In this document: piece by piece, positions 1,930 through 58,722 of the stretch
How the letters are laid out: each line of letters opens with the position of its first letter
Numbering within the stretch: position 1 is the first letter of the stretch
Assembly (NCBI GenBank): GCA_963709585.1
Contig: CAVPXI010000013.1
Location: 64,001-128,000 of the forward strand
Length of the DNA: 64,000 bases
Source: Candidatus Dormiibacterota bacterium
GTDB taxonomy: Bacteria > Chloroflexota > Dormibacteria > Aeolococcales > Aeolococcaceae
Direction: 5' to 3'
Translations under genes and position numbers: made by a program
The notes under the pieces: generated by a model
Database searches by the model: none
What the model saw: the letters and a program-made list of their open reading frames with translations, nothing else
What the model was told of the DNA's origin: nothing

Positions 1930-2290
1930 CAAAACTGTAAGCGCTATGTAGGCGCTTGACTGCCACAATCTCTTGCTATGAGCAGCGGCATCCAGCCTCA
2001 ACCATCGGGATTGATGCCTTTTGCAGGAAAAGTGATCATTCCTGGTTAGAGCACTACACGACGTGGGCGCGCAGGCGCCCAAACAAACTGCGCAACCTCT
2101 CGTTGCGAACTCAAGTCGGACGTCCGTCGGGGAGACAGGACTCGAACCTGCGACCCCTGGTCCCCCAGACTAGTCCTCACTTCCTTGATAATGCTGAGTT
2201 CGATTTAGAGTGCTTTCGTCGGGAAATGGTTGGAATGACGACTAGAGCGCCTAATGGAATCCGTTGGACTAGCGTCGACATCCACAGAGG
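1930..2290 (-). repeat. Family A att-like repeat copy 1: ~195-bp left arm + tRNA-Pro(GGG) 3' half (2126-2173) + ~110-bp right arm
   Basis: Reverse complement of the core reads CTAGT-CTGGGGG-ACCAG GGGTC GCAGG-TTCGAGT-CCTGT CTCCCCGAC (anticodon arm, T arm, acceptor 3' strand); arms align with the copies at 26.3 and 48.8 kb. Confidence 0.9.
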
Positions 2291-2429
2291 TTTATTGAGC
2301 GTACCCCATCTCCCCTCTTCCCCGATTGTTCTTGTACCTCGAACTGGGCCGCATCGTAACGGGGCCACCAAGGGCGCATGGGATGACCATCTGCGGCTCC
2401 GTTTATTCGATTCGACCCTCCCCGGCTCC

Positions 2430-2490
2430 TGGAGCGGAAGACGGGGCTCGAACGCGCAATTTCAACCTTGGGAAGGGGGCGGTCCGTTTT
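2430..2490 (-). repeat. tRNA-Gly(CCC) 3' half (2430-2476) with short flank shared with the 46.9-kb site
   Basis: Reverse complement CCTTCCCAAGGTTGAAATTGCGCGTTCGAGCCCCGTCTTCCGCTCCA: CCC anticodon loop, T-loop, U discriminator + CCA; no D arm or 5' half. Confidence 0.8.
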
Positions 2491-2862
2491 TGTATTCAGC
2501 TGCGCCCGACAGACCGCTCAGGATGTCTATCCACCCCCATTTTCGAGCGCGATCACATGGCCTTCGCCAGTCACCATCGGCCAATCAAGTGGGAGTGGAC
2601 GGCAGCCATCTCAATACTCGATTGCTCCGGTCCTCCACCCTACAGTCCGCCGAGTTCAACCACCCGCTCACTGTGCGCTCGTCAAGTAGCTCTCCGACGT
2701 TGTGAGCACTCCACCGCTCATGTCCGCCAAACCGGGGCAGGCTCGCCTCAGCCCTGACCACCTTCAACCCGCCCCTCATCCACCGACCAGTTATGACGGT
2801 TGCAGAGGAGTACCAGGTTGTCCAGGTGTCGTCCGACGAGATGAATGACGAGTTGATGCCCT

Positions 2863-3290
2863 CTACGAGACAGCGGCAAGACACGTGGACTGCGCCTCAC
2901 TCGGCGCCACCGCCGCTCGAATCGAGACGGCAGGCGGTGACTGCAGCGAGTTATGCACGGTGCAATGGCCGATCGCTCGACGGACTGCTTCGACGCGAGA
3001 CTCAGTTGTGGTCGAAGGCAGGTGTACCTCGATGGCGATGCTGGCGACGCGCCAGGGTGGCGCTCGCTCATCGTCCACGTGCAACGCACCGTCGGCCTCT
3101 CCCCTCCGGAGCCCAAACCGCGGCGGGCGTAATGGGCGACGCACGACGCCAGGGATGCGACGAAGAGATCGATGGGGGTCGGACCAGCATCATCGCCTCC
3201 AAACTCTCGGGGCTGGTCGACGATCACTTCATGACCGCGCACCGTGATCCGGTGGCGGTCACCGCCGAGGCTGACCACTGTCAGTTCCAT
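2863..3290 (-). CDS. OsmC/Ohr family protein, frameshift near 3060
   Basis: DQPREFGGDDAGPTPIDLFVASLASC in one frame; AIGHCTVHNSL (second Cys) in the adjacent frame. Confidence 0.8.
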
Positions 3291-3297
3291 GGCTGCT

Positions 3298-3822
3298 TTA
3301 GGTGAAGATGATCTGGCCGCCGGCGGCCTTCTCGTAGAACTCGCCCACGGTGATGATGTCCTGCACCTGGGGGATGAAATCGTCCTTGGTGAGTCCGAAC
3401 AAGTCGACGGACGCCTTGCACGCATATAGGCCAGCGCCGGTGTCGGCGATCATCTCGACGAACTCTGGGATGGACGGAATATCGAGCTTCTCCATCTTGG
3501 AGGCCAGGTAGTGGGTCATCACACTCGACATGCCCGGAACACCCCCAAGCCAGGTGGAGAGATGCAATCCCGGGTTCCCCACGGTCGCGATCTTGATGTG
3601 CTCGTGACGCGCCTTGTGGACGGCATCGAGCCCGAAGAAGGTGAAGAACAGATTTGCCTCGATCCCCTCGGCGCGCGCCCCGTTGGCCATGATCAAGCCC
3701 GGGTAGACCCCGTCAAGGGATCCCTTGGAGATGATGATCGACACCTTCTCGACGGTCGCCGGCATGAATGCCCTTGGCGCCACCGTCGGTGCCGCGGTTG
3801 GTTCGACCGTCAGGGTGGTCAT
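3298..3822 (-). CDS. DsrE/DsrF/DrsH-like sulfur carrier protein
   Basis: ANLFFTFFGL and LYACKASVDLFGL motifs. Confidence 0.85.
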   Translation of the reverse strand: MTTLTVEPTAAPTVAPRAFMPATVEKVSIIISKGSLDGVYPGLIMANGARAEGIEANLFFTFFGLDAVHKARHEHIKIATVGNPGLHLSTWLGGVPGMSSVMTHYLASKMEKLDIPSIPEFVEMIADTGAGLYACKASVDLFGLTKDDFIPQVQDIITVGEFYEKAAGGQIIFT

Positions 3823-3837
3823 GTCAGATCCTCCTCG

Positions 3838-4155
3838 TCAGATGCAGCCGCGTGGCTTGGGGATACCGGCAATCCGTGCGGCCACCTTTGCCGGGCCCTT
3901 GGGGAACAGTTCGTAAAGCTCTTTGATGGAAACGCCAGATGCTTTGCCCAACACGCGCACGGTCGGTCCGGTCCCCTTCTCCAGGTACTCACTCCGCATG
4001 AAGCGGATGACCTGCCAATGACGGTCGGTGAGGTAGCTGATGCCTTCCTGCGCAGCGAGCGCGGGGACCATGGCGTCGCTCCACTGTGATGGGTCAAGAA
4101 AGAAACCTTCATCGTTGCGAGCGACGTCGGCGAACTCGACGGTTGCGACGTTCAT
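3838..4155 (-). CDS. tusE: TusE/DsrC family sulfur relay protein (C-terminal CysA only)
   Basis: EGFFLDPSQW...LTDRHWQVI...LYELFPKGPAKVAARIAGIPKPRGCI; lacks CysB of true DsrC. Confidence 0.88.
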   Translation of the reverse strand: MNVATVEFADVARNDEGFFLDPSQWSDAMVPALAAQEGISYLTDRHWQVIRFMRSEYLEKGTGPTVRVLGKASGVSIKELYELFPKGPAKVAARIAGIPKPRGCI

Positions 4156-4166
4156 GCTGCTTCCTC

Positions 4167-5420
4167 TCAATGCGTTCCCGCGGGAACCTTGTGTTTGCCG
4201 GCGGTCGGCATGTCCGATGCGATGCCGGGGATGGAATGACCCGGTAGCAGCGCGTGCCAGTAGAACCACTGGAACATCAGCTTGCCGAGGTGGTTGAGGT
4301 GCGACTCTTTCAGGAGCGGCAGGCCGATGCGGTCAGGAAAGTGACCGGGCAACGGTTCGGTGTCGTAGTTGAAGTCGATGAGCACCGCCTTGCCGAAGCC
4401 TGTCTCGATGAAACAGTTGGCATGGCCGTCGTAGCTCGCGTCAAGCGATTCCCCTTCGAGGAATCTCCGGATGTTCTCGGTGAGCACTTCGCCCTCGAAG
4501 TGCGTGACGGATCCTGCTTTCGATATCGGCAGCCCGGCCGCATCACCGATGGCGAAGACATTCGGCGCAGCCTTGGATTGCAGCGTGTGCGGATCGGTGG
4601 GTATGAAGTTGAGCTCGTCGCCCAGTCCTGGGGACCGCCCGACAAGATCGGCGCCACCGTGGAGTGGCACGACCACGCCCAGATCGAATGGCACCTCGCG
4701 CCCGTCGTATGCAACCAGCTTCCCCCTTGTGGCGTCGACGCTCCCGGTGTTGAACTCGGTGACGACCTCGATGTTCTTCTGCGCCAGGAGTTCGCCGAGC
4801 TGTCGTGAGGCCACTGGCTTGGTGAAGGCACCGTCGAGCGGAGTCACATACGTCAGCGTGACGTCGTCGCGGACGCCCTTCTCGCGGAAGAACCAATCGG
4901 AGAGGAAGCAGAACTCCAGCGGCGCCACTGGGCATTTGATGGGCATGTCGACGACGTTCACAACGATCCGGCCGGCCTTGAAGTTCGCGAGCGCGGGCGC
5001 AAGCGCGCGCGCTCCGTCGAGCGAATAGAACGTGAAAACGTTCTGTTCCCACCCGGGCCCGGCGAGTCCCTCAGTCTCACTGGGCATCAGCACCGCGCCC
5101 GTCGCGATGACGAGGACGTCGTAACGCTCACTGGTTCCATCCTCGAAATGCACCACATTCGCGCCGAGGTCAACGCTCTCGATGGTGGCTTGGAGGTAGC
5201 GGACCCCTGCATGCAACTGATCGCCCCGGGATCGCACCAGTTCCTCTGCCTGAGCCAACCCAAAGGGGACAAAGAGCAAACCAGGCTGATACACGTGGGC
5301 GTCGTTCCCATCGACCACCGTGATATCTGTCGATCGCGGCAGCACCCGGCGCAAGCGGTTCGCGGTGATCGTTCCACCGGTGCCGCCACCGAGAATGAGA
5401 ACGTGCTTTTGGTCATTCAT
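4167..5420 (-). CDS. sqr: Sulfide:quinone oxidoreductase (type III-like)
   Basis: ILGGGTGG FAD motif, YQPG, IKCPVAPLE, VFAIGDA, YDGHANCFIETG; next to tusE/dsrE. Confidence 0.85.
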   Translation of the reverse strand: MNDQKHVLILGGGTGGTITANRLRRVLPRSTDITVVDGNDAHVYQPGLLFVPFGLAQAEELVRSRGDQLHAGVRYLQATIESVDLGANVVHFEDGTSERYDVLVIATGAVLMPSETEGLAGPGWEQNVFTFYSLDGARALAPALANFKAGRIVVNVVDMPIKCPVAPLEFCFLSDWFFREKGVRDDVTLTYVTPLDGAFTKPVASRQLGELLAQKNIEVVTEFNTGSVDATRGKLVAYDGREVPFDLGVVVPLHGGADLVGRSPGLGDELNFIPTDPHTLQSKAAPNVFAIGDAAGLPISKAGSVTHFEGEVLTENIRRFLEGESLDASYDGHANCFIETGFGKAVLIDFNYDTEPLPGHFPDRIGLPLLKESHLNHLGKLMFQWFYWHALLPGHSIPGIASDMPTAGKHKVPAGTH

Positions 5421-5481
5421 CGCAGCCCCAGGATGGCACCTGGTGCGATCGTCAGCCAGGGTCCAATCGCATCGGTTTCGT

Positions 5482-5496
5482 GTGACCTTGGACCCT
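5482..5496. promoter_or_regulatory. DosR-like operator upstream of sqr
   Basis: GTGACCTTGGACCCT; the same motif recurs at 7840, 7931, 15320, 15894 and 23922. Confidence 0.5.
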
Positions 5497-5618
5497 TCTC
5501 GCGTCCGAACTTGACGTAGCAAGAGAATCGCCCTGAGCTCGGCAAGGCTGAGGTTGCCAATACCAACGCACTGAAGAGGGTCCCGGGGTACCGTCGCACT
5601 CCGAAGTGGGACGTTAAG

Positions 5619-6275
5619 TCAGTTGACGTGTTCGATCGAGTGCCGTTTCGCCGCGATCCAGGTGAAGGGTTGAACCGCGCCACCGGGTGTGACGTGCTCC
5701 TCGCGGCTCAACTCAGCCACTTTGAAGCCGTCGAGGAGGCGTTGGAGGTCGGTGGCGTCATAGCGCGACACAGGGAGCCCGGAGCAGTGGTCCGGTCCGT
5801 CGGCAGCGAACGTGGCCATGATCAGCGCCCCGTCGTCGCTGATCGCCTGACGCATCACATCCAGATACCTCGCCCGCTCCGCGGTATCGGTGAGAAAGTG
5901 AAACACCGCGCGGTCGTGCCACAGGCCATATCGGCGTTCCGGCTGCCAGGACAGGATGTCCTCGCGAAGCCAGCGCACCGGAGCGGCGTCACCGAGCCGG
6001 TATCGAGCAAGCTCAAGCGCCGTCGACGACACGTCGAGGACAGACACGTCGGTGTAGCCCCGAGCCAGGAGCTCGTCTACGAGGAGGGAGGCGCCGCCGC
6101 CGACGTCGACAATCGGCGCTGTCTTCGGCACGCCGAGACGGTCGATGAGAGTCAGAGACATCGCCGGTTCGCGCTGATACCAACTGACCCGGGTCGCTCC
6201 TGCGTCGGCGTAGCGCCGGTCCCAATGTCGACGTCGCGATATGGAGCGCGCCCACTCAAAAGGCATAGACGACAA
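5619..6275 (-). CDS. Class I SAM-dependent methyltransferase
   Basis: HWDRRY...VSWYQ...IVDVGGGAS...WHDRAVFHFL...CSGLPV. Confidence 0.85.
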   Translation of the reverse strand: MSSMPFEWARSISRRRHWDRRYADAGATRVSWYQREPAMSLTLIDRLGVPKTAPIVDVGGGASLLVDELLARGYTDVSVLDVSSTALELARYRLGDAAPVRWLREDILSWQPERRYGLWHDRAVFHFLTDTAERARYLDVMRQAISDDGALIMATFAADGPDHCSGLPVSRYDATDLQRLLDGFKVAELSREEHVTPGGAVQPFTWIAAKRHSIEHVN

Positions 6276-7755: not shown

Positions 7756-7839
7756 GGACAACTCTCCCGATACGCGAAAGGCATTGAAGGTCCACCACCG
7801 TCAGGAATCTGACTATCAATCTTTCGTGAAAGTGCCGCC

Positions 7840-26135: not shown

Positions 26136-26332
26136 TGCTGCGTAACGCCCGCTGCTCAAGCGGACATCGCTCAGAACCAGGTCCGTGCGATGGCGCTCAG
26201 CCCTTGCGGACGAGCGGAGTGGAGGGGGTCCGGCTGTGCCAAGCATCAGGCGGACGCGCCGCGCACCGTCAAGCATCTCTTGGACCCGCGGTGGCCAAGT
26301 ATCTGCCGGGCTCTTACACGGTCGATGGCCGT

Positions 26333-26693
26333 CAAAACTGTAAGCGCTATGTATGCGCTGGACTGCCACAATCTCTTGCTATGAGCAGCGGCATCCGGCC
26401 TCAACTGTGGGGAATGATGCCTTTTGCAGGAAAAGTCATCATTCCTGGTTAGAGCACTACACCCCGTTAGCCGGCAGGCCCCCAACGCACCGCGCAACCA
26501 CTCGTTGCGAACTCAAATTGCGCGTCCGTCGGGGAGACAGGACTCGAACCTGCGACCCCTGGTCCCCCAGACTAGTCCTCATTTCCCGATGCGTGCTGAG
26601 TTCGATTTAGAGTGGTTTTGTGGGGAATTGGTTGGAATGACGACTAGATTGCGTGTTTTGGACTTCGTTGGAATCGCGTGGACATCATTGGAG
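26333..26693 (-). repeat. Family A repeat copy 2 (both arms; tRNA-Pro fragment 26528-26575)
   Basis: Core identical to copy 1; arms align. Confidence 0.9.
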
Positions 26694-38662: not shown

Positions 38663-38680
38663 GCAGACACACCGGGGGTT

Positions 38681-38823
38681 TGACCGTCTCCAGGCCAAGC
38701 GTGGACGTCTGATGGACGTCTGATGGACGGGGCGGCGGGAGACGGGGGTCTCCCGCGCGCGTACCACCGGCGCGCACGGAGTTGACTTCTCTTATCGGTT
38801 CGGTGCAGCTACGTGAGGGGGTT
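38681..38823. repeat. Family B att-like repeat copy 1
   Basis: TGGACG at 38702/38713/38724; palindrome GCGGGAGAC-GGGG-GTCTCCCGC at 38735-38756; TTCTCTTATCGGTTCGGT at 38787. Confidence 0.85.
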
Positions 38824-38883
38824 GTTCTCAGGGCATCGAGCGATGCGGCTGCATTCGCGTTCGGGCGAGCGGGCGTTCCGCGT

Positions 38884-43059: not shown

Positions 43060-43175
43060 GGCGCGACGTGGACGTCTCATGGACGGGGCGGCGGGAGACG
43101 GGGGTCTCCCGCGCAAGTACCACTACGACTGGCGGAGTTGTTTTCTCTTATCGGTTCGGTACCGCTGCGTAAGGA
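43060..43175. repeat. Family B repeat copy 2
   Basis: TGGACG at 43069/43080; palindrome 43091-43112; TTCTCTTATCGGTTCGGT at 43143. Confidence 0.85.
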
Positions 43176-43410
43176 GATGGCTCGCAGGAATGGAGCGATG
43201 CGGCTGCAGTATCCTTCGGGCGATCATAACCGAGCCGGACTTTGCTGACCACTTCGCCGACTGGAGGCGTGGCTCGTGAGCTGTCGGTTCATCTGCGCCA
43301 GGTCGGGTGACATAACGCTCGTGTGGGGGAGAGTGGCGAGTTGTTAGTTGAGCAGGTGACCGCCCGCCCATTCGCGCCTGGATGCCAGTGTGGGTCATCC
43401 AGGCGGTGAG

Positions 43411-45603: not shown

Positions 45604-45749
45604 TTTGATGAGCGTCTCATGCGCGGCGTGGACGCGTCATGGACGTCTGATGGACGGGAAGTGAGCAAGGGGGTCTCCCGCGCGAATACTACCGACGCGC
45701 GCGGAATTGATTTCTCTTATCGGTTCGGTGCGGCTGCGTAGGGGGGGTT
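45604..45749. repeat. Family B repeat copy 3 (left half of core palindrome altered)
   Basis: TGGACG at 45629/45640/45651; GGGGGTCTCCCGC; TTCTCTTATCGGTTCGGT at 45712. Confidence 0.85.
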
Positions 45750-46844: not shown

Positions 46845-46965
46845 TAGATGACCGTCTGAGGCGCGGCGTGGACGCGTCATGGACGTCTCATGGACGGGGC
46901 GACGGGAGACGGGTCTCGAACCCGCAAGTTCAACCTTGGGAAGGTGACGGTCTGTTCTTGGTTCG
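46845..46965. repeat. Family B copy 4: TGGACG arm joined to a tRNA-Gly(CCC) 3' half (46903-46944)
   Basis: TGGACG at 46869/46880/46891, then cgggagacgggtctcgaacccgcaagttcaaccttgggaagg, which aligns with 2430-2476. Confidence 0.85.
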
Positions 46966-47200
46966 GGTCACGGACAAAACCCTCGCCCGATAACCGACGC
47001 GTTTGCACAGCTCGAGCTGTTCACGGTTCCGACCTCAGTGGTTATCCTCCGCCGAGAGTCGCGCGACTTAGAGTGGTTTTGCAGGAAAGAACATCAATCA
47101 GGGAATGCGTACTAGTCCCTGCAAAGTGACTGATCCCCGCAAGTTGGAATCGGCTGCATTTGAGTGGAAATGGCTTCACTGCAGTGCAATGGGATGCGAA

Positions 47201-47358
47201 TCGGGGAGACAGGACTTCGAACCTGCGACCCCTGGTCCCCCAGACTAGTCCTCATTTCCCGATGCGGGCTGAGTTCGATTTAGAGTGGTTTTGTGGGGAA
47301 TTGGTTGGAATGACGACTAGAGCGCGCGTTATGGATTTCGTTGGAATCGCGTGGACAT
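47201..47358 (-). repeat. Family A copy 3 (tRNA-Pro fragment 47201-47248 with 1-bp insertion + right arm only)
   Basis: Right arm nearly identical to copy 2. Confidence 0.9.
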
Positions 47359-47393
47359 GATGCGGGTACTCAGCGCGCAGCGGACCACCTTTC

Positions 47394-47792
47394 TCAGCCC
47401 CTCATCAGCACTTCAGAGTCGGCAACGGAGGTGACGTCAACGCCGCCATGCACGCCGAGCGCGAGGAGGTCGGCGTCGCCGGTGACAAGAGCATCGGCCG
47501 ATCCGGTTATGGCTATCGCAAGGATCTGATCGTCATCGGGATCCCGACAGACGCGCGGAACCTCAATCGGCGTCACCACATCGGCCATGGCCTCGAGCTC
47601 CGCTCGCACCGCGACAGCCCGATCGCTCGCCCAGCCACAGGTCTCGACGAGCACGGCCTCCAGCTCACGGAGGATCGCGGGACCGATGATCAGGGTGTGA
47701 TCACCACGGAGGACGTCGTCGAGGAGACGTCGCGGGCGTCCACCAAAGTGGAGCGCCGACACCAGCACATTGGTGTCGAGAACGACCCGCAC
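47394..47792 (-). CDS. PIN-domain (VapC-like) toxin
   Basis: MRVVLDTNVLVSAL...CRDPDDDQILAIA...LVTGDADLL. Confidence 0.9.
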   Translation of the reverse strand: MRVVLDTNVLVSALHFGGRPRRLLDDVLRGDHTLIIGPAILRELEAVLVETCGWASDRAVAVRAELEAMADVVTPIEVPRVCRDPDDDQILAIAITGSADALVTGDADLLALGVHGGVDVTSVADSEVLMRG

Positions 47793-48053
47793 TCAGCGTG
47801 TTGGTTTGCGGCGAGAGCGGCTGCGTCGCGATTTCACCGCAGCTACGACGCTATCTTCAGTCAGGGCACCAGCAGCCGCTCGGTCTTCCCCATACGCAAA
47901 GAGCTGATCCCATCGCTTGCGTCGCTCCGCGTACTGGCGGAACGCTTCTCGCAAAAGTTCGCTGCGCGTCCGGCCCTCCTGGTGCGCCAAGCGGTCGACC
48001 TCGACCGCGAGCTCTGGCGGGAGCGAGATGGTCACTGTCCCGGTCGTGCGCAT
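47793..48053 (-). CDS. Ribbon-helix-helix (CopG) antitoxin
   Basis: VTISLPPELAVEVDRLAHQEGRTRSELLREA; directly upstream of the PIN gene. Confidence 0.88.
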   Translation of the reverse strand: MRTTGTVTISLPPELAVEVDRLAHQEGRTRSELLREAFRQYAERRKRWDQLFAYGEDRAAAGALTEDSVVAAVKSRRSRSRRKPTR

Positions 48054-48178
48054 GAACAGGACGATAACACGAAGTCTTACCCGATAGGACCGCCGAACGG
48101 ATCGGGCTCACAGTGAACTCGGGCAACCATAGATGCGCCAATGGTGACATTGGCCTGCCGGAGGTCAATTTGCCGAGG

Positions 48179-48775
48179 ACCGGAAGCGATCTTCGGTTTC
48201 TCGGCCCGAAACGAAGAAGAGCGTTCTCGCTCCGATCAGGGCCTCGCGCATAGCGGCGGTGTCCGCATACGAGGGGTGCGGCGACCGCGATCGCCCCCGC
48301 CATGGGCGGCGCCGTCCCAACGCTGCGGACGATCAACCGCTGGGCGACGCCGCGGTCCGCGAGGCGTCGTGCCACCCGTCCGCCAAGGGCACCGGTGGCA
48401 CCGGTGATTGCGAGGTCTGGCAGCGTCAGATTGACTCCATTCCGAGCGGTGTAAGTATCCCGCCGAACCCCACCGACCGCGGTGGCACCACTACTCGGCG
48501 ATCGAGGCGGCCCTCGGCGCCGGCGTGGAGCGGATCGTCTACGTCTCTTTTCTCGGCGCCGCACCGGATGCGACGTTCACGCTAGCGCGGCAGCACTACC
48601 TCACAGAGGAGCGGATCCGAGCTGCGGGAATCCGGTACACCTTCCTGCGATCCAGCCTTTACGCCGACTTCGTACCGTTCATGACCGGAGATGATTTGGT
48701 GATGCGCGGTCCCGCCGGGACGGGTAAAGTCGGCTGGATATGCCGCGATGACATCGCTGACGTGGCAGCTCGGAC
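48179..48775. pseudogene. NmrA/QorB-like NAD(P)H-binding oxidoreductase, 5' part inverted, 3' part truncated
   Basis: AITGATGALGGRVARRL on the minus strand; GVERIVYVSF...RDDIADVAA on the plus strand. Confidence 0.75.
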
Positions 48776-48785
48776 GAGCTCGATG

Positions 48786-49135
48786 AAAGCTGTAAGCGCT
48801 ATGTAGGCGATTGACTGCCACAATCCGATCCATGAGCAGCGGCATCCGGCCTCAACCGTGGAGATTGATGCCTTTTGCAGGAAAAGTACTTATTCGCGTT
48901 TAGAGCACTACACCACGTGGGCGCGCAAGCGCCCAAACGCACTGCGCAACCTCTCGTTGCGAACTCAAGTCGGGCGATTGTCGGGGAGACAGGACTCGAA
49001 CCTGCGACCCCTGGTCCCCCAGACTAGTCCTCATTTCCCGATGAGCGCTGAGTTCGATTCAGACTGGTTTTGCCGGGAATTGGTTGGAATGACGACTAGC
49101 GCAGTTGCGATGGAATCCATTGGATTCCCGTCAAC
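48786..49135 (-). repeat. Family A copy 4 (both arms; tRNA-Pro fragment 48980-49027)
   Basis: Core identical to copies 1 and 2; arms align. Confidence 0.9.
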
Positions 49136-49403
49136 ACGCACCCACGGTGCTGGACATTACTTCCCTCCCTCACCCCTCTGGACTTTGGGCATTCTGACGG
49201 CCGTCGGGCGCGTCGATCATCTGAAGCCCGTGGATCTGCTGACAGGGCGCTTGTGTGCCGGAGATCGCCTCACTCGGTTTAGCATCCGCCTCAGGGCTGA
49301 CGCTCAGGCTTGGATCTCTCCCTCCATGTGGGATGCTGGCGCGGTGACCGGATGGGCCGCGCTCCACCAGATCATCGGGATGGCCGGAGCGAGCTCGCCT
49401 CTG

Positions 49404-51701
49404 TCAGAGGCTCGAGGAGATCCAGCCTGCGATCTGTGCACGTGAGTTGAAGCCAAGCTTGTTGAGGATGTGACCAACGTGGGTGGCGACCGTCCGTTCG
49501 GAAATGAATAGCCGGGCTGCGATCTGCTTGTTGCTGAGACCTTCCGCGACCAAGGCCGCGACCTCAGCTTCACGCTTCGCGAGGGGTCCGGAGTCCGCGC
49601 CGGAGAACGAAGCGGCCTCGCGCTGCTCGGATTCGCCGAGCGCCAGCCGCACCGCCGCGTGGCGGTCCAGGCGTTGCCCCGCCTCAAGCTCGGCCTCAAA
49701 TTTCGCTGCCCCGAGGGCTCGCATGGCCAATTCCCTGGCCTCGGTCTGGTATGGCGCATGCGGTCCAATAACCTTTGCGCCGGCGCCGGCACCGATGGTC
49801 TGCGCCGCCCCGAGCAGCCGGGCTGCGAGGCGCGGCTGGCCGGAGGTCGCGGCGAGCCAACTCATCGCAGCCAGAACGTAAAACTCGGCGATCCGGTCGT
49901 CGAACTGCCGCGCGACCCGCAACGCCTCGGCGGCACCCGCGTGTGCTTCGTCAAGGTCGCCCTTCGTGATGGCAATCGCACCGACATTGCGGAGCATCGA
50001 TGCCAGGTAAAAGAGGTCGCCAGCGTCGCGACTCAGGAGCATGCCCGCCGATGATGTCGCTGCGGCGGCGTCCATGTCATTTGCGAAGAACGCATGGACA
50101 GCTCGCGCCTGCACGAGCTCGATGGTCGCGGCATAGTCGCCGACAACAGCAGTGATCGCTTCGGCCTCATCCAGAAGGTCGCCGGCACCTGTGGGATTGC
50201 CGATCTGGTTCTCCGCGTTGGCGGCGACCGAGAGTGCCTGCGCCAGTTCCGCCGGCTGCCGGGTTTCCCGAGCCGTTGCGATGGCGCGAGCGAGCCATGG
50301 CCTGGCGGCTGCAGGGTCGGCCTGCACCACACTCAGCCAGCCACGAAGGACGAGAGCGCGCACCTGCGTGCGCGGAGACGCCTCCCCTGATGCAAACAGG
50401 AGATCCAGCCAGCGAATGCTCTCCGTGGTTCCGTGGGTGATCCAGTAGTACCGCAACGAGGCCGCTACATCGAGCCCTCGGCCGGAGTCTCGGTGCGAAA
50501 CGCAGTGCTGGAGTACCGCTCGAATGTTGTCGATTTCGAGCTCCACCCAGGCGAGCCAATCACGGAGCTGGTACCGGCCCTCGGCCTCGGTCGACAGACA
50601 CGTCTTCCAGTAATAGTCGACGCAACGCTCCGATAGTTCGCCGTCCTCATGTTCGTCGCGCAACTTGAGCGTGGCGTACTCGCGCATGGTTTCGTGAAGT
50701 CGATAACAGTCACGGCCCCCGAAGTCTTCCTTCATGAGCAGCGATTTCTCGACCAGTGATGACAGCAAGTCCAACGTGTCGGTTGCGGCCAGCTCGCCGT
50801 CGGTGCACACCGATTCGACGTCGTCGAGCGTGAATCGGGTGGCGAAAACGGAGAGTCGCCGCAAGACGTGCCGTTCACGCGCCGTCAGCAGGTCGTAGCT
50901 CCAGTCGATGGTCATCCGGAGCGTTTGATGTCGCGGCAGCGCGGCGCGGCTCCCTCCGGTGAGGAGGGCGAAGCGATCACGCAGACGCTCGAGGATCTGC
51001 TCCACGCTGAGGACCCGGGTTCTGACCGCCGCGAGCTCAATCGCCAGCGGCAGGCCATCGAGGCGCCGGCACACGGCAACCACAGCTGCCTGGTTCACAT
51101 CGGTGAGGACGAACGTGCCGGACGCCGCGGCTGCCCGCTCGGTGAACAGGACGACGGCTTCGTTCTCTCGCACGTGGGCGAGCGGTTCGGTTCCATCGTC
51201 GCGAGGCAGCTGGAGTGGCGTGACGGGCACCACGTGTTCGCCCGCCACCTGGAGCGGCTCCCGGCTGGTGGCGATCACGCGGATGTTCGGAGCGGAGCGA
51301 AGGGCCTCAGCGATGAGCTGAGCCGCCGCATCGAGAACGTGCTCGCAGTTGTCGAACACCAGCAGCAACGCTTTGTTCCGCCAGAAGGACCTCAGGATCT
51401 GCAGCGGCTCCACGCCGGCTTGGTCACGGAGGTCAACGGCCGCAAGCACGGCGCTGGGCACAAGGGCGGCATCGCGCACCTCGGCGAGTTCGACCAGCCA
51501 GGCGCCGTCGCTGAATCCGCGTGAGAGGTCGTCTGCAGCCCGCAATGCGAGCCGGGTCTTCCCCACTCCTCCTGGCCCGACGAGGCTGACGAGCCGGGCG
51601 GCCGCGAGTTTCTGCCTGATCTCGGCGAGCTCGCGGCGGCGGCCCACGAAGCTCGTGGTCTCGGCGGGCAGATTGCCCGAACGGTGACGTGGTCTCGCCA
51701 T
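49404..51701 (-). CDS. STAND (NB-ARC-like) ATPase-TPR-LuxR HTH transcriptional regulator
   Basis: [38 protein letters not shown]; C-terminal [19 protein letters not shown]. Confidence 0.92.
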
Positions 51702-51812
51702 GGTGAGTCCGAACCTACCCCTCAATCACGAGCGCTGATGTCCTTCGACTACGCATCGAATCCGTAATCCTGACGATTCGGCCGGTCCGGCCCCTGGCTC
51801 AGCCTGACACCC

Positions 51813-52031
51813 ATGACACACGAGCTGCCGAATCATCGGGTCGCGGCGACATTCGTCAGCCGACCTCCCATGCGTCAGATTGCCCGAGCGTCGGGTGTGA
51901 CCGACGTGGTGGTCGATGGCTGCCAGCTGCGCTGCGTGGTGCACGGCAGCTTTCAGCCCCTGCTCGAGGCGCTGCGCGGCTACGAGGTCATCAGCCTCAC
52001 TTCCATTCCGACCTCGGACGGAGGTGATTGA
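51813..52031 (+). pseudogene. Remnant resembling the C-terminal domain of an ABC-2 ATPase
   Basis: GVTDVVVDGCQLRCVVHGSFQPLLEALRGYEVISLTS, no nucleotide-binding domain. Confidence 0.45.
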
Positions 52032-52128
52032 TGGCCACAAGGCGAATCACGTCTCTCGATCCCGACCAGCCTGACGCATCCACATCGCACCTCAATCGGT
52101 GCTCATTCATCAAGACAAGGAGAACGAC

Positions 52129-52815
52129 ATGACCGTCACACCGAACACCCTCTTCCGAGCGACCGGCGTTGCCACGGCGGTGGCAGGAATGATCTTCATC
52201 GGCGTACAGATCGGGAGTCCGCACCTGGACGGCGCCACCATCACAACGACCAACGCGGTCGTCCGCGACAGCCTCAAGGTCCTCATGGCTGCCCTGGCGC
52301 TCGCCGGGATCAGCGGTCTGTACCTGTTCCAGGTGAGGAAGATCGGCGTGCTCGGCCTGGTCGGGTACCTCACCTTCGCCACCGGCTACCTGACGATGCT
52401 CGGGATTGAATTCGTCGGCGCTTTCGTCCTCCCGTCGATCGCGCACAGTTCCCCCGCCTACGTCAGCAATGCCATCGCCGAAGCCACCAACGGCACCGTC
52501 ACCGGCAGCATCGGGCTGATCAAGGTCGCGATCCTGGTCAACGGGATCACCTACGTCGTCGGCGGTGTCATCTTCGGCATCGCACTCTTCCGCGCCAATG
52601 TCCTCGCTCGATGGGCCGCCGTGCTCCTCGCCTGCGGCAGCGTCGCAACCGTCGCAACCGGCGTCATGCCGCAGTACGAAAGGCTGTTCGCTTTTCCCAC
52701 CGGCATCGCCCTGATCGGCCTCGGGTACTCCCTGTGGCAGGCGCAGCGCTCGCCAGCCTCTCGGGCCATCACCAGCTCGGTGAGCTCGCAACTCGAGGCG
52801 GCCGGAGCCAAGTGA
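52129..52815 (+). CDS. Multi-TM hypothetical membrane protein
   Basis: AAGGAG RBS; about six TM helices. Confidence 0.75.
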   Translation: MTVTPNTLFRATGVATAVAGMIFIGVQIGSPHLDGATITTTNAVVRDSLKVLMAALALAGISGLYLFQVRKIGVLGLVGYLTFATGYLTMLGIEFVGAFVLPSIAHSSPAYVSNAIAEATNGTVTGSIGLIKVAILVNGITYVVGGVIFGIALFRANVLARWAAVLLACGSVATVATGVMPQYERLFAFPTGIALIGLGYSLWQAQRSPASRAITSSVSSQLEAAGAK

Positions 52816-52828
52816 CCGTCCGCGTGGC

Positions 52829-52872
52829 AGCACACCCCACCCCGATCGACCGCGTCGATCGGGTGGGTGCCA
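52829..52872. other. Intergenic stem-loop
   Basis: CCCGATCGAC-CGC-GTCGATCGGG with outer CACC/GGTG pairing. Confidence 0.5.
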
Positions 52873-52925
52873 GTCGTCAATTCAAAAACCAAACGATCAC
52901 GACCCGATCACAAGGAAACATCCAA

Positions 52926-53654
52926 ATGACCACATCGCGAAAAACCGCGCTCGTTGTCGGAGTGCTGTTCATCCTCACCTTCATCACCTCGATCGCAGGA
53001 GAGCTCTCCTACGGCTCCGTCCTCAGCGATCCCCACTACATCACCAGTGCCGGCACCGACACCGGCGTGTTGGTGGGTGCGTTCTTCGAGATGTTCCTCA
53101 TCATCACTAATATCGGTTGCGCAGTGGTGTTGTTCCCGCTGCTCAAGCGTCAGAACGAGGCACTCGCCCTCGGCTACGTCACCGCTCGCCTCGTTGAGTG
53201 CACGTTCATCCTGGTCGGCATCCTGAGCGTCCTTGCGGTCGTCACACTGCGACAGCACGCCGGGAGCGCAGATGCGGGCTCACTCATCGTTGTCGGCAAG
53301 TCGCTGATCGCCATCAAGGCGTGGACACTGCTGCTCGGGCCCGGATTCGTCGACGGAATCGGGACTGGACTGATCCTGGGCTGGCTGATGTACCGGTCAG
53401 GGCTCGTGTCGCGCCGCATGGCGCTCTTCGGCGTCGTCGGTGGTCCACTGCTGGCCGCTTCAGGGATCGTTGTGCTGTTGGGCGTGATCCCACAACAATC
53501 GGCATTGCAGGGCATCGCGACCATCCCGGAGGTGATCTGGGAGGGGTTCTTGGGCTTGTGGCTCACCTTCAAGGGATTCAACGCGGTTGCTGTTGGTGCC
53601 GGCGAAACCACAGACGTCCGTCAAGCCGTAGTGATGGCTGCTGTTGATGCGTAG
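52926..53654 (+). CDS. DUF4386 family membrane protein
   Basis: RKTALVVGVLFILTFITSI, ALGYVTARLVE, LMYRSGLV, LWLTFKGF. Confidence 0.82.
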   Translation: MTTSRKTALVVGVLFILTFITSIAGELSYGSVLSDPHYITSAGTDTGVLVGAFFEMFLIITNIGCAVVLFPLLKRQNEALALGYVTARLVECTFILVGILSVLAVVTLRQHAGSADAGSLIVVGKSLIAIKAWTLLLGPGFVDGIGTGLILGWLMYRSGLVSRRMALFGVVGGPLLAASGIVVLLGVIPQQSALQGIATIPEVIWEGFLGLWLTFKGFNAVAVGAGETTDVRQAVVMAAVDA

Positions 53655-53683
53655 TTCCTCGGAAAGGGCCAGACTGCGACGCC

Positions 53684-54958
53684 ATGGCCGAGGTCACCTT
53701 CGAACCGGCGGTGGCTTCGTTGCGCCGGGAGGTGCCCACGGCACGAGTGGGAGTCGGGTTCATCTCCCTCTTCACGTTGGCGTACATGAGCGCCAATCTC
53801 GTCTTCCAGGCGCCGATACTGGTAACCCTTCCCTTGAAGGTCAGCTCGCTTGTCGGAATCAAACAAGCTCCGGGGAGCCTGGCGCTTGTCGCAAGCATCG
53901 GCGCTTTCGTGGCCATCTTCGGGAATCCCTTCTTCGGGCGGATGAGTGACCGCACGACGTCACGACTGGGGATGCGAAGGCCATGGATGGTCATCGGCGT
54001 GGTCGGCGGCACCGCCGGCGTCGCCATCGTCTCCTTCGCACCCAGCATCCCGGTTGTTCTGCTCGGCTGGTGCATCGCGCAGCTGTTCTTCAACGCGATG
54101 CTGGCTTCGCTCGCGGCGGTGCTTCCCGATCAGATCCCGGTCGCGCAACGCGGCACGGTCTCCGGTGTGCTGGGCATCTGCCTGCCGATTGCGGCGGTGA
54201 GCGGCACGTACATCGTGAAGCTCTTCAGCGGACAACACATCGCCACATTCCTTGTCCCGTGTGCGACGGGGGGCTTCTTCATCCTGCTGTTCGCGGTCGT
54301 GTTGAATGACCGGCACCTTGCGAAGGCGGATAGGCCGACTTGGTCCATACGGGAATTCGCAAGTACCTTCTATGTGAAACCGCGGACCAGCCCTGACTTT
54401 GCCTGGGCTTTCGCCAGCCGCTTCATGTTCCTGATGGCCTACGCCCTGCTCGCGACGTACGAGGCCTACTATCTGCTGCAGAAGATCGGCACCGCCGTGG
54501 CCGACGTGCCGCAACAGATCTTTCTCGGCACGCTCGTGCAGGGGGCCGTCATCGTCGCCGCGTCGCTCATCGGTGGGCATCTCTCCGACCGGACGCGCCG
54601 GCGAAAGATCTTCGTGTTCACCGCTGCGATCGTCTATGGCCTGGCAATGTTCGCGCTGGCGATAGCCAGCAGCTTCAACGGGTTCCTCGTCGGCATGGCC
54701 ATCAGCGGACTCGGTTTCGGCGTGTTTGCGGCTGTCGATCTCGCGCTCGTCGTTGACGTGCTCCCGAATCCGGGTCACAACGGCAAGGATCTCGGCGTGT
54801 TCAACATCGCGGGCGCGCTCCCGTTCTCGCTGGCGCCGGCGTTGGCGCCGACGATCCTGGCGATCGGCGGCGGCAGCTATGGTGTGCTATACGCCGTTGC
54901 GGGCGTCTGCGCCATCCTCGCTGCTGTCGCGATCATGGGCGTGAAGGGTGTCCGCTGA
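53684..54958 (+). CDS. MFS transporter
   Basis: GRMSDRTTSRLGMRRPW and GHLSDRTRRRK loops; 12 TM. Confidence 0.9.
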   Translation: MAEVTFEPAVASLRREVPTARVGVGFISLFTLAYMSANLVFQAPILVTLPLKVSSLVGIKQAPGSLALVASIGAFVAIFGNPFFGRMSDRTTSRLGMRRPWMVIGVVGGTAGVAIVSFAPSIPVVLLGWCIAQLFFNAMLASLAAVLPDQIPVAQRGTVSGVLGICLPIAAVSGTYIVKLFSGQHIATFLVPCATGGFFILLFAVVLNDRHLAKADRPTWSIREFASTFYVKPRTSPDFAWAFASRFMFLMAYALLATYEAYYLLQKIGTAVADVPQQIFLGTLVQGAVIVAASLIGGHLSDRTRRRKIFVFTAAIVYGLAMFALAIASSFNGFLVGMAISGLGFGVFAAVDLALVVDVLPNPGHNGKDLGVFNIAGALPFSLAPALAPTILAIGGGSYGVLYAVAGVCAILAAVAIMGVKGVR

Positions 54959-55489
54959 GCAGGGCCCGCCGTAGGTCGGCTCGCCCGCAAGGACTGAGTG
55001 CCATCGGAGCGACCAGCTTCGTGGCTTAGGGCGATGAGCAGCGGGTTCAGGCTCTATAGGTCCATATCGGTCCCGCTGCGAGGCCTGGATACAACCCAAC
55101 GGTCGGCCCGCTCGCTCGTCGCTCATCTCTATTGTCGTTGAGCACCCCGCTTACCGACGTAAGCATCGGCGCATAGTCTTGCCAGGAGTGGTCTGGTGAC
55201 AGCATGCCCGTGTGGCCGAGTACTACAGCGCGCCGATACCATGTCTGTCTCAATACAGAGCCGCGCCCGCACTGTCTCACCGCTGACGCTGGGCCTATGA
55301 GGGACTACAAAGGGCACCGTGGCTAAAAGGGAGGAATTCCCTAGTCGGTACCTTGAAGAAAACCGGGCAAGCCCGAACCACCTGAATGGGGCTCTGAACG
55401 CGAGTAAATCAGTGCGACAGCGTGGCCTCTGCTCTGCAAGCAGAGGCCACTGCGAACCGGGTGGTCAACACGGTGGACCGATCAGGCGG

Positions 55490-56230
55490 TCAACCCTGCC
55501 CGCCCTTGACTGACATGAAGCCGTTGATCGTTTCGATGTAGGCGGTCATGGTCGTCGTGCAGCCCGTGGTGCTCCGTGCCGTGGTGTATTCGGCGTTGAA
55601 CCGGTAGGTGCCGCTGCCGTCGAGCTGCGAGAGGCTGCCGGTGGCGACTGAAACGCTGAACGGCCCGGTCTGAGTGATGGTGCCGACGCAGGTCTTGGGG
55701 TCGAAACGGACGGTCGGCTGCCCAGTACTATGATCGATGCGGAAGGTGCTCCCGTCGATGACCGCGTTGTCGACGGCTCTACCCGGATGCTCGATCCCGC
55801 CTGCGTTGATCACTCCTGTCACGATGATGGCGCCGGGACCGGCTGGGTTGGTCGATGAGACATAGAAACGCTCGGTTGACCCGGAGGGGGCTGGACCCCA
55901 GCCGTGAGGTCCGAAGCCCGACCACGCGCTGCCTGCATCTGGGCTGCCCCATACGCTCCAGGGGTTTACGTCCGCCCCACCAGGTGTTGTCGACGGTGCA
56001 GTCGTCGTCAGTGCAGTGACCGAGGCCGTAGTCGAGGTGGCGGCCGCCGACGCGCCGATCACCGCCGCGAACGATGCGGCCGCCACAACACCCCCAGCGA
56101 TGACCGCCGCGACGACCCGAGACGATCTGCGCCAGAGGAAGAGGCCGATCACGGTGAGCCACAGGGTGCCGAAGACCAACGGAAAGATCCACCAGAAGGC
56201 AAAGCCGCCGCCGACCAAGTATCCGGGCAT
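55490..56230 (-). CDS. Hypothetical membrane-anchored protein with beta-rich C-terminal domain
   Basis: GGAGGA RBS; two N-terminal TM, Thr-rich linker, two Cys. Confidence 0.6.
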   Translation of the reverse strand: MPGYLVGGGFAFWWIFPLVFGTLWLTVIGLFLWRRSSRVVAAVIAGGVVAAASFAAVIGASAAATSTTASVTALTTTAPSTTPGGADVNPWSVWGSPDAGSAWSGFGPHGWGPAPSGSTERFYVSSTNPAGPGAIIVTGVINAGGIEHPGRAVDNAVIDGSTFRIDHSTGQPTVRFDPKTCVGTITQTGPFSVSVATGSLSQLDGSGTYRFNAEYTTARSTTGCTTTMTAYIETINGFMSVKGGQG

Positions 56231-56493
56231 GTCGTGTTCCTCCGAGTCGTGTGTTGTATGCAACGGCACCATCGTCGGAGGCTCGCGGTACTCCTGTCGT
56301 CCGTCCGGAAGCGACACCTTCGGCTACGTCCGGCGGCGTAGCTCAGTGACGACTTGCTTACGGCAGCGCTTGGCTCGCCGACACGTGCGCTCGTCCCTGA
56401 CAAGTCAGAGGAACCGCGATGTCCATTTCTCGATGTTCCCGTTCGTCTTAGGACTGAAGACCAACCGAACCGCCACTCACAAGGAGAGTCGCC

Positions 56494-56886
56494 ATGTCGT
56501 CGAATCAGGAAGCCACCGCCGTTGAGGTCGCTCGGGCTCACGTTGCCGCGTGGGGCAAGCACGACTACGAGGTCGCGCGCGCCGCGCTTGCAGCCGATGT
56601 CCACGTTTCGGTCTCGAGCGTCGATCCCGAGGCACCGAAGGTCGACACCACGGGGGTCCAGGACTACATGCAAGGTCTGATGCAGTTCGGTCATGCCGTG
56701 TTGCCGGGCACGACCACGGTGAACTCCGGGGTCGGCGATGAGACGCGGGCGCTGTTACACGTGACCTCGCGCGTGAAGTTCGGGCCAGATGCGCCAGAGA
56801 TGACGCTCCGGGGAGCGCGCCTCTATCGACTTGACGAGGATCAGAAGATCATCGACGAGCAGGTGGTGTTTTTCGTCACGCTGTAA
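56494..56886 (+). CDS. SnoaL/NTF2-like protein
   Basis: VARAHVAAWGKHDYEVARAALAADV...YRLDEDQKI. Confidence 0.8.
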   Translation: MSSNQEATAVEVARAHVAAWGKHDYEVARAALAADVHVSVSSVDPEAPKVDTTGVQDYMQGLMQFGHAVLPGTTTVNSGVGDETRALLHVTSRVKFGPDAPEMTLRGARLYRLDEDQKIIDEQVVFFVTL

Positions 56887-56975
56887 TCACGCGGCGGTAG
56901 CCGGGGGCCTCTTGAGGCCTCCGGTCGCTCGCGGTTGTTTGGCAGCAGCCAGCGAACAACTTGAAGGAGGACCCG

Positions 56976-57317
56976 ATGCGATATGCGATGTTGGTCTACG
57001 TCGACGAGAGGACAGACAGGAGCGAGGAGGCTGTCGAGAGCGAATACGCCGCGTTCATGGCGTTCCAGGACGAGATGGAAGCCCGTGGAGTTCTGGTCGC
57101 ACGCGAGCGTCTGCGCGAGGCGACGCTCTCGACGACGGTGAGGGTTCGAGACGACAGGCTCGTGGTCGCCGACGGTCCTTTTGCCGAGACCAAGGAGCAG
57201 ATCGCCGGCTTTTACGTCATCGAGGTCGCGGATCTCGACGAGGCGATCGAGATCGCTTCCCAGAATCCGGGCGCCCGCTCCGGCACGATCGAGGTCCGAC
57301 CAGTGTGGCAGCTCTAG
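56976..57317 (+). CDS. YciI/DGPF family protein
   Basis: DGPFAETKEQIAGFY...IEVRP. Confidence 0.92.
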   Translation: MRYAMLVYVDERTDRSEEAVESEYAAFMAFQDEMEARGVLVARERLREATLSTTVRVRDDRLVVADGPFAETKEQIAGFYVIEVADLDEAIEIASQNPGARSGTIEVRPVWQL

Positions 57318-58562
57318 CCGATGCGCAGGCGGCGGTCGACGAGGCCTTCCGGGCCAACTGGGGTCGCGTCGTCGCCTACCTGATCCACGTTACTGGCGAT
57401 TGGGACCTGGCCGAGGAGTGCGCCCAGGATGCGTTCGAGCGGGCTATCGCTCGCTGGCCACGCGATGGGATTCCATCGAGTTCCTGCGGCCTGGTTGAAA
57501 ACGACTGCGCGAAATCGTGCACTGGACCGGATGCGGCGAGACACGGTGGGCGAAGCCAAGCTCAGGGAGGTTGCTGTGACGGGACCCGCAGCACGTCACG
57601 ACGACGACAACGACAGCGGGATTGACGACGATCGGCTTCGGTTGATGTTCACATGCTGTCACCCAGCGCTCCCGGTCGAGGCTCAGGTGGCGCTGACGCT
57701 TCGCACACTCGCGGGTTTGACGACACCCGAGATAGCACGCGCCTTCCTGCTCCCTCAGGAGACGATGGCGAAGCGGTTGACGCGCGCTAAGCGCAAGATT
57801 GTCGAGGCACGCATTCCATATCGCGTGCCGGATGCGCGCCATCTGCAGGAGCGGCTGCGCGCGGTGCTGGCAGTGATCTACGCGCTTTTCAACGAGGGCT
57901 ACGGCGCGAGCACCGGCGACGAGCTGATTCGCAAGGAACTCTGCTCGGAGGCGATCCGTCTGGGACGGTTGCTGGCGGAGCTTATGCCCGATGAGCCAGA
58001 GGCCCTTGGGTTGCTTAGCCTCCTGCTCCTTCAGGACTCGAGGCGCCAGGCACGCATCGACGGCGAGGGCGAGTTGGTGACGCTGGCGGACCAAGATCGC
58101 GCGCTCTGGGATCGAGCCGGGATCGACGAGGCGTGCATGCTCCTCGATCGAGCCATGCGGCATCGACGACCGGGGCCGTACCAGTTGCAGGCCGCGGTCG
58201 CAGCCTGCCATGCCCAGGCTCGGACCTCCGACGAGACGGACTGGCGGGAGATCGTGGTCCTCTATGACCGGCTGAGCGAGATTGCACCGACGCCGGTTGT
58301 GCTGCTCAACCGCGCCGTGGCTGTGGCGATGGCCGACGGGCCGGCGGTGGGACTCGCGCTGCTCGTCGAGCTGGAACAAGCGGAAGTCCTGTCCGGTTAC
58401 TACCTGCTGCCCGCGACGCGTGCCGATTTGCTCAGACGACTGACGCGCCACGCTGAGGCGCAGACGGCATATCGCGAAGCGCTTGCGCTGGCGCCGACCG
58501 ACGCCGAGAAGCGGTTTCTTCTTCGGCGCCTATCTGAGCTAGCCCCGCCGGGCGACCGATGA
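57305..58562 (+). CDS. ECF42-type sigma factor with C-terminal TPR, frameshift near 57480
   Basis: DLAEECAQDAF; DDRLRLMFTCCHPAL; GPYQLQAA; paired with a DGPF gene. Confidence 0.88.
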
Positions 58563-58574
58563 CGGGGCCGGTTT

Positions 58575-58722
58575 GTCGGGGAGACAGGACTCGAACCTGC
58601 GACCCCTGGTCCCCCAGACCAGCACTTATTCGCGGATTCGGGTTGAGTTCGACTTACAGTGCTTTCGTCGGGAAATGGTTGGAATGACGACTAGACCGTG
58701 CGGATTGGAATCGCGTCGACGT
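58575..58722 (-). repeat. Family A copy 5 (tRNA-Pro fragment 58575-58622 with intact anticodon stem + right arm only)
   Basis: Reverse complement CTGGT-CTGGGGG-ACCAG perfect stem; right arm closest to copy 1. Confidence 0.9.

Follow-up and report, generated by a model that had tools for sequence, protein, structure and literature searches.

Dormibacterota are abundant, uncultured bacteria of soil and permafrost. The 64-kb stretch analysed here (hereafter the window) comprises positions 64001-128000 of contig CAVPXI010000013.1 (C13) of a Candidatus Dormibacterota assembly (G000; completeness 88.8%), and lies within a long chain of genomic islands that ends at a tRNA-Pro(GGG) gene. We attribute this chain, with a probability of about 0.75, to the tandem site-specific accretion of non-autonomous islands similar to cis-mobilizable elements (CIMEs), served in trans by a tyrosine integrase borne on an integrative and conjugative element (ICE). 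The islands would have been inserted serially into the 3' half of the tRNA gene by site-specific recombination, which would place the window in mid-array. With each insertion the tRNA would be restored and a displaced copy of its 3' half, termed the core, would move further away from it, so that island junctions would read P arm - core - P' arm, a regenerated attP-like site. The islands of C13 are non-autonomous, with their arms kept and the recombinase absent; the integrase (here IntPro), supplied in trans, could integrate and excise such islands at any core, and an ICE excising together with neighbouring islands could move them between cells (accretion and cis-mobilisation).

A repeat search of the window revealed a 145-nt direct repeat in five copies, all in register (window 2142, 26544, 47217, 48996 and 58591; 70-100% identical; spacings 24402, 20673, 1779 and 9595), and a 271-nt repeat family in three copies (1978, 26380 and 48832). 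The invariant block of the aligned repeats is the minus-strand tRNA-Pro(GGG) from anticodon stem to acceptor end. All five copies have a conserved arm upstream of this block, and three have another conserved arm, of ~200 nt, downstream of it. ARAGORN detected no intact tRNA gene in the 64-kb window. Five exact copies of ~44-48 nt within 64 kb cannot have arisen by chance. The repeat search and the alignment bore out the coordinates, spacings and arm lengths that the original prediction had given for five co-oriented tRNA-Pro(GGG) 3'-half repeats. It had also counted a left arm in three copies; this holds for the three arms of the first type (P'1), but the copy at 47201 has a left arm as well, of a second type (P'2) that is common to four further copies outside the window. 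The copy at 58575 is the only one in the window devoid of a P' arm. The junctions, in window coordinates, are:

1923-2125, minus strand: junction 1, P'1 arm (~200 nt, type 1), with a sharp outer end in the alignment of 11 P'1 copies; downstream of the core (tRNA orientation), it is the proximal end of the island to its left
2126-2173, minus strand: core 1, displaced tRNA-Pro(GGG) 3' half, anticodon stem to acceptor end
2174-2284, minus strand: junction 1, P arm (110 nt, three ATTCCA direct repeats), distal end of island A
26325-26686, minus strand: junction 2 (P'1 arm 26325-26527; core 26528-26575; P arm 26576-26686)
47015-47361, minus strand: junction 3 (P'2 arm ~47015-47200; core 47201-47249, with a 1-nt insertion; P arm 47250-47361)
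48777-49138, minus strand: junction 4 (P'1 arm 48777-48979; core 48980-49027; P arm 49028-49138)
58575-58735, minus strand: junction 5 (core 58575-58622; diverged P arm 58623-58735; no P' arm)

When the whole assembly (3.52 Mb, 24 contigs) was searched with the 421-nt unit by BLASTN, 30 rows were returned; judged by these, the islands on C13 range in size from 1.8 to 41 kb. Contig C13 carries 17 unit copies (16 displaced copies and the intact tRNA) between 11.6 and 211.6 kb of its 212.1 kb, and contig C14 carries six (five displaced and the intact tRNA) between 13.5 and 71.7 kb, all of them on the plus strand; each contig was treated as a separate array. The remaining rows were three short internal hairpin matches, one 25-nt match and matches of 32-40 nt on C15 and C7, one C15 match overlapping a tRNA-Pro(TGG) gene. 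Beyond these short matches, BLASTN found no unit copies in the assembly outside the two tRNA-Pro(GGG) arrays. The copies are thus not scattered over the genome, and a miniature inverted-repeat or other transposon-derived repeat was ruled out, since all unit copies sit at the two tRNA-Pro arrays and on one strand. The intact minus-strand tRNA-Pro(GGG) that had been foreseen to the right of the window was located by ARAGORN at C13:211509-211583 (window coordinate 147509-147583, 83.5 kb right of the window), and a second one at C14:71628-71703. Each chain terminates at its right end at this intact gene, which adjoins der/EngA; the head of the C13 array consists of the tRNA gene, a P'1 arm and a GrpB gene, in that order. 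Co-oriented direct repeats of the tRNA 3' part therefore stand downstream of the intact same tRNA, as in known cases of accretion. The 564 nt beyond the C13 tRNA (C13:211584-212147, the end of der/EngA) are 85% identical to C14:71703-72268. Because the flank is duplicated at this identity and a complete relative (G019) has a single array within the 180 kb read, C13 and C14 most likely represent one locus from two related populations that were binned together. C13, with 64.6% GC against ~67% in most contigs, may come from the second population.

The arms were compared across C13, C14 and G019, in which 34 copies were found; three intact tRNAs were dropped and the P arms of the 31 displaced copies were aligned. 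The P arm is 110 nt long, lies upstream of the core (tRNA orientation) and has a sharp outer edge. Its blocks conserved at 90% or more include CTAGTCGTCATTCCAACCA, and three ATTCCA direct repeats are also present. Such direct repeats and conserved blocks are what arm-type integrase sites should show. Between anticodon stem and acceptor end the core and the tRNA are identical, and because this identity stops upstream of the anticodon stem, the crossover probably takes place in or near the anticodon loop. On the P' side, 22 aligned copies comprised 11 P'1 arms (200 nt), one partial P'1, five P'2 arms (a group that includes the intact tRNA of C14) and five with nothing recognisable. The P'1 arm has a sharp end, with unrelated cargo beyond it. 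P'1, P'2 and the core-to-int spacer of IntPro-bearing elements share a motif of ~26 nt, which overlaps the upstream start of a 345-aa integrase open reading frame (ORF), so the arms without integrase seem to descend from an int-bearing ancestor. The junctions as a whole look like attP-like sites of the arm-core-arm type, which supports the earlier proposal that they are att-type junctions of serially inserted, integrase-less segments with standardised ends. Two other candidate features of the P'1 arm were dropped. RNAalifold on 11 arms found no support from covariation (covariation term +0.46, with 5 of 49 pairs compensatory), and a structured RNA was not retained; a 13-codon small ORF was abandoned as its start codon is missing in two aligned copies. 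Rfam at the gathering threshold gave no match in the whole window.

Comparison of the two contigs provided one insertion with defined end points. The segment C14:66361-71679 is 97.1% identical to C13:193532-198848 over 5.3 kb up to the core and represents a shared island, while C14:71629-72268 (tRNA and der) is 86.7% identical to C13:211510-212147; the 51 nt common to both matches are the core. In C13, an extra island of 12.66 kb is present between the tRNA and the shared island, bounded by a duplication of the 51-nt core. It encodes GrpB, a lactonase-like protein and a STAND NTPase but no integrase; its tRNA-proximal end bears a P'1 arm and its distal end a P arm. It is thus present in C13 and absent from C14, with core repeats as its end points. 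Since the shared island is far more similar than the chromosomal flank, the islands have probably been exchanged horizontally.

The same architecture was found among relatives. In a first search, every one of 24 genomes of the same genus gave multi-copy arm-core-arm matches. The sister family gave matches in 15 of 16 genomes, with E-values such as the 49-nt core by itself typically yields (this tally takes in two unpublished genomes, G027 and G036). Family-wide, P arm plus core was detected at E <= 1e-18 in 45 of 117 genomes and 6 of 22 genera, a count that includes one unpublished genome, G062. In G019, which is complete in a single contig, the array reaches ~153 kb from the tRNA with 12-13 further copies, and within the 180 kb read there is a single such array and a single tRNA-Pro(GGG). 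Gene content differs between relatives, so the identical gene order that would have spoken against serial capture is not seen. Parts of island D of the window occur in 38 of 41 other genomes, inside arrays where cross-checked and in other orders and orientations, whereas the whole of island D occurs in none of the 41; the 12.66-kb island is represented by modules only, in eight of them. Both being seen only in parts or modules, the islands are mosaics between genomes.

The absence of integrase, relaxase and transposase genes from the window, claimed beforehand, was confirmed by a Pfam scan of its 80 ORFs. In the six-frame search of the genome, PF00589 had 11 matches, the single one on C14 lying 250 kb from the array, and PF00239 had one, on C4; neither family matched on C13. 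No integrase, serine recombinase or relaxase was found in the C13 or the C14 chain. The C13 islands thus have flanking att sites and no recombination or transfer genes, as CIMEs do; the sole mobility gene that Pfam detected on C13 is one IS110 transposase (C13:147132-148388). PF00589 was also searched in five relatives, and matches adjacent to a core were obtained in G004 and G019. This tyrosine integrase, IntPro, has 332-345 aa with PF00589 as its only domain and is encoded ~85-120 nt 3' of the core in both genomes, the pair being 88% identical; in G004 the gene is located 85 nt 3' of the intact tRNA, and in G019 it lies inside the array. Of 42 genomes of the genus, 8 have an orthologue with 88-100% identity; in each of them it follows a core directly on the 3' side, and in five of the eight it lies beside the intact tRNA (marked by a short 68-nt match). 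A cognate integrase next to the core was therefore found in relatives but not in the assembly under study. The integrase had tentatively been expected to the right of the window; it was not found there or elsewhere in the assembly, and in relatives it occupies the island side of the tRNA and not the region beyond it. As for a single trans-acting recombinase, one cognate integrase family does exist in relatives, but none of its members was found in this assembly. Since IntPro was not found there, the array studied is probably at rest. The analysis demonstrates the anatomy of the array, its distribution over the genus, where the integrase lies and one clean insertion polymorphism of an integrase-less island; we infer that IntPro binds the arms and acts in trans, and that the islands are currently mobile.

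The IntPro element in G019 is 7.5 kb long, with int first, followed by a Crp-like regulator, sigma-70 and an aldehyde dehydrogenase, and with a standard P arm and core last. The first 12-13 kb of the tRNA-proximal IntPro element in G008 are shared with G016, G005 and G043; this first part encodes a TraI/RecD-like helicase, a ParA-like protein, RadC, ArdC, SSB and ParB, and further on there are a VirB4/TraG-like ATPase, a T2SSE ATPase, TadE and a VirD4-like coupling protein. These genes mark the element, the one of its kind that was read further, as a putative ICE with a length of at least 55 kb. The G008 element also harbours defence genes, namely a CBASS Cap15-type effector domain (L041:2063-2860) and a split GmrSD restriction enzyme (L042:1986-3726).

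Several observations weigh against accretion of non-autonomous islands served in trans. The same chromosomal locus occurs twice, on C13 and on C14. C13 has no PF00589 match, and no IntPro orthologue was found in the assembly, which is 88.8% complete and was searched except for 8000 bases; its best match is 32% identical. Whole islands D and 12.66-kb were not found intact in other genomes, only as modules. No P' arm exists at 5 of 22 junctions, and several cargo genes look truncated or frameshifted, both of which fit decay. How closely an arm matches the consensus shows no correlation with its distance from the tRNA, either in C13 (rho -0.19, p 0.48) or in G019 (rho +0.20, p 0.56). A gradient would be expected if islands simply accreted one by one at the tRNA and then decayed neutrally; that none is seen agrees with arms that are maintained, with insertion at internal cores or with rearrangement, and proves none of them. 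Finally, no clean circle or empty-site joint was present in four Logan contig sets, in which contigs are short and break at the repeats.

Some of these points would be accommodated by a fossil array, in which the islands were once autonomous, all of them lost their integrase and the arms are decaying relics devoid of present function. The cargo genes that look damaged, the five junctions without P' arm, the lack of an integrase in the assembly and the remnant of the int 5' region kept in the P' arms all agree with it. However, eleven islands that end in the same sharp-ended 200-nt arm call for one deletion that then spread, not for eleven identical deletions; moreover, the tRNA-adjacent C13 island is integrase-less with clean core duplications, and the arms show strongly conserved P-arm blocks in three arrays and no decay gradient. 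We thus regard a fossil origin as unlikely. Spread of the junctions by homologous recombination, unequal crossing-over or gene conversion, which would make the array a shuffled hypervariable region, could also explain the missing gradient, the mosaic islands and the duplicated modules, one of which is inverted (C13:155467-157577 versus window 56388-58498, 94%). Such exchange probably contributes to the array, but it is unable to create the first copies; the insertion that distinguishes C13 from C14 is bounded exactly by the 51-nt core, and the strict co-orientation of copies at the 3' half of a tRNA, together with the cognate integrase that relatives carry next to it, is the signature of site-specific integration. 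As the main cause we consider it very improbable. It is hardly conceivable that assembly or binning alone produced the pattern through chimeric joins at the repeats, so that the island order is not real. The data do come from a metagenome bin in which two contigs duplicate one locus, and the public contigs over the window are short and broken at the repeats; on the other side, the repeats are short (~160-420 nt) and diverged (76-95%), multi-copy junctions recur in each of the 24 genomes of the genus that were searched first, and the complete one-contig G019 has the same architecture over 153 kb, which also answers the concern about misassembly raised at the outset.

The description of the array as functionally an integron went too far. 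There is no platform integrase with attI and promoter: C13 has no PF00589 gene, and the array head is tRNA, P'1 and GrpB, not intI-attI-promoter. The segments are multi-gene mosaics of 1.4-41 kb with genes in both orientations, not the short, promoterless and mostly single-gene cassettes of integrons, and the sites are double-strand attP-like arms arranged arm-core-arm, not attC hairpins, no fold of P'1 being supported. The integron interpretation was rejected on these grounds. The array resembles sedentary chromosomal integrons in its long one-way chain, exchangeable units, standard sites and one tyrosine recombinase. It differs from them in having no intI-attI-Pc platform, no attC-type folded sites, large mosaic units, a tRNA gene as anchor and an integrase that resides on a mobile element and is often absent.

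Another parallel is offered by ICESt1 and ICESt3 of Streptococcus thermophilus, the subject of work by Pavlovic et al. in 2004, where att-flanked CIMEs without recombination or transfer genes reportedly stand in tandem with an integrase-supplying ICE. The composite is said to be able to excise and usually to comprise one or two CIMEs at the fda locus. Unlike these CIMEs, the units described here are many, lie at a tRNA and mostly have one standardised integrase-less arm. In Dehalococcoides, tandem islands delimited by direct repeats lie within ~100 kb downstream of ssrA; in the part of that report drawn on here, 15 islands without an integration module are proposed to be cis-mobilizable elements moved by accretion, the target is tmRNA with a 20-bp repeat, and a serine integrase is kept in 16 islands (McMurdie et al., 2011; PMC3146451). 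As far as this part of the account goes, the two systems share the tandem arrangement, repeats of a small-RNA 3' end, extra conserved sequence adjacent to the repeats and strain-specific content. The present array differs in its location at tRNA-Pro(GGG), its ~48-nt core, its 110- and 200-nt arms, its tyrosine integrase, its length (~200 kb) and the absence of integrase from all 16 C13 islands. Excerpts of the report on Prochlorococcus tycheposons describe islands anchored at a tRNA that contain complete as well as partial tRNA copies; older elements are displaced deeper into the island by newcomers, and most island DNA lies outside intact elements; the tycheposons have their own tyrosine integrase and a replication module and are not conjugative (bioRxiv 10.1101/2020.12.28.424599). 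The tRNA anchor, partial tRNAs, inward displacement of older elements and tyrosine recombinases are common to both according to these excerpts, which do not describe partial tRNAs with long conserved arms on integrase-less units. In its architecture the array agrees with the accretion of ICEs, integrative and mobilizable elements and CIMEs that has been described before at tRNA or tmRNA genes. It departs from these systems in its scale, its long standardised arms, its two integrase-less arm lineages over many unrelated cargos, and the ICE as the likely source of the integrase.

A full-text literature search found no papers titled on Dormibacterota genomic islands. If accretion served in trans is the correct explanation, most of the accessory metabolism of Dormibacterota would be concentrated at one tRNA locus and exchanged as integrase-less islands dependent on a conjugative element. 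The phylum would then have a concrete route of gene flow that can be tested. With its many junctions, its two types of arm and a single integrase, the array would moreover offer an unusually clean natural system in which to learn how non-autonomous islands are built and kept recognisable. A further-reaching proposal, about which we are rather doubtful, is that the locus is a working gene-capture platform across the genus and parts of the family, with arm frames selected for recognition by the ICE-borne integrase. On this view, multi-gene islands would undergo excision and reshuffling among the internal cores, and would leave the cell together with the ICE. In that case the array would be an island-scale functional analogue of the integron in an uncultured soil phylum, and ~6% of the assembly bases (~212 kb of 3.52 Mb) would be exchangeable cargo.

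Cargo was annotated by Pfam scans of the window ORFs and of 118 called genes on the rest of C13. It comprises metabolic, transport, stress and regulatory genes, among them hydrogenase and PFOR genes, and several look truncated. The units have their own regulators and genes on both strands. Within the window the islands, which are given no strand, are:

2285-26324: island A (~24 kb), with DsrE, DsrC, two P-type ATPases, an HtrA-like protease and PspC; further genes are ApbE (looks frameshifted), a ferric reductase, a Nuo51-like protein, an ECF sigma factor and a flavodoxin
2435-2492: tRNA-Gly(CCC)-like fragment within island A
26687-47014: island B (~20.3 kb), with an aquaporin, G6PD, 6PGD, ROK, two TetR and a CLC channel; further genes are ABC and FtsX transporters (some truncated), a Flp pilin, DLH and GNAT
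~38680, 43069, 45609 and 46849: four copies of a second repeat family in island B
47362-48776: island C (1.4 kb), with a PIN-domain (VapC-like) gene at 47394-47792, minus strand, abutting the P arm
49139-58574: island D (9.4 kb), with a LuxR-STAND regulator, DUF4386, an MFS transporter, SnoaL, YCII and an ECF-type sigma factor (DUF6596); it has no P' arm, and the sigma gene ends 12 nt from the core
58736-64000: start of island E, which continues to the next junction at C13:129212 (window 65212), with truncated luciferase-like and RidA genes, an FAD monooxygenase, a tautomerase and TetR

Copies of the PIN-domain gene adjoin the P arm at three places, window 47394-47792 (minus strand), C13:135007-135402 and C14:18182-18466. 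A 730-nt PIN module has matches in 17 of 41 other genus genomes and adjoins the P arm wherever coordinates were compared. By analogy with the toxin-antitoxin cassettes of large integrons, the gene may be an addiction module that stabilises the array; no antitoxin partner was identified for it. The SnoaL-YCII-ECF sigma module of island D (window 56388-58498) is repeated, inverted and 94% identical, at C13:155467-157577. This inverted copy adjoins another junction, and co-oriented cores cannot explain the inversion.

Parts of the window are contained in 20 of 22 listed public runs, all as Logan contigs, four of which were compared. The simplest explanation of a backward joint from 58693 to 46918 (X1 and X4) is a contig that comes from the paralogous junction at C13:15231, at which a tRNA-Gly-like fragment immediately adjoins a P arm. 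Loose ends at 58575 and 58626 represent the intact tRNA with a P'1 arm mapped onto a core. A low-depth skip from 49134 to 56275 (X1, depth 5) is a hint that some population has a shorter form of island D.

The second repeat family is likewise co-oriented, with copies at window 38680-38860, 43069-43208, 45609-45749, 46849-46960 and 2435-2492, and elsewhere on C13 at 165630, 175713, 178261, 180562, 184915 and 15335. The arm measures ~110-180 nt and contains TGGACGTCT repeats in tandem; in three copies it is fused to an antisense tRNA-Gly(CCC) 3' half, and in the others to a GC-rich hairpin instead. The intact tRNA-Gly(CCC) gene is at C4:124614-124685, with a displaced copy at C4:127336-127385. 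The family is restricted to C13 (and the C4 tRNA) and is absent from C14 and G019; it may represent att junctions of another integrase system nested in the tRNA-Pro array.

Other tRNA genes of the assembly have similar neighbours. Near the tRNA-Pro(TGG) gene (C15:40658-40732) there is a 40-nt displaced copy 5.2 kb away (C15:35482-35521 versus C15:40660-40699), which suggests a small island at this gene as well. Furthermore, a PF00589 integrase lies within ~0.1-1.5 kb of eight other tRNA genes (Ser-TGA, Leu-CAA, Thr-GGT, Gln-CTG, Gly-GCC, Lys-CTT, Ala-GGC and Gly-TCC) on contigs C4, C7, C8, C10, C14 and C20; tRNA-targeted integration is pervasive in the lineage.

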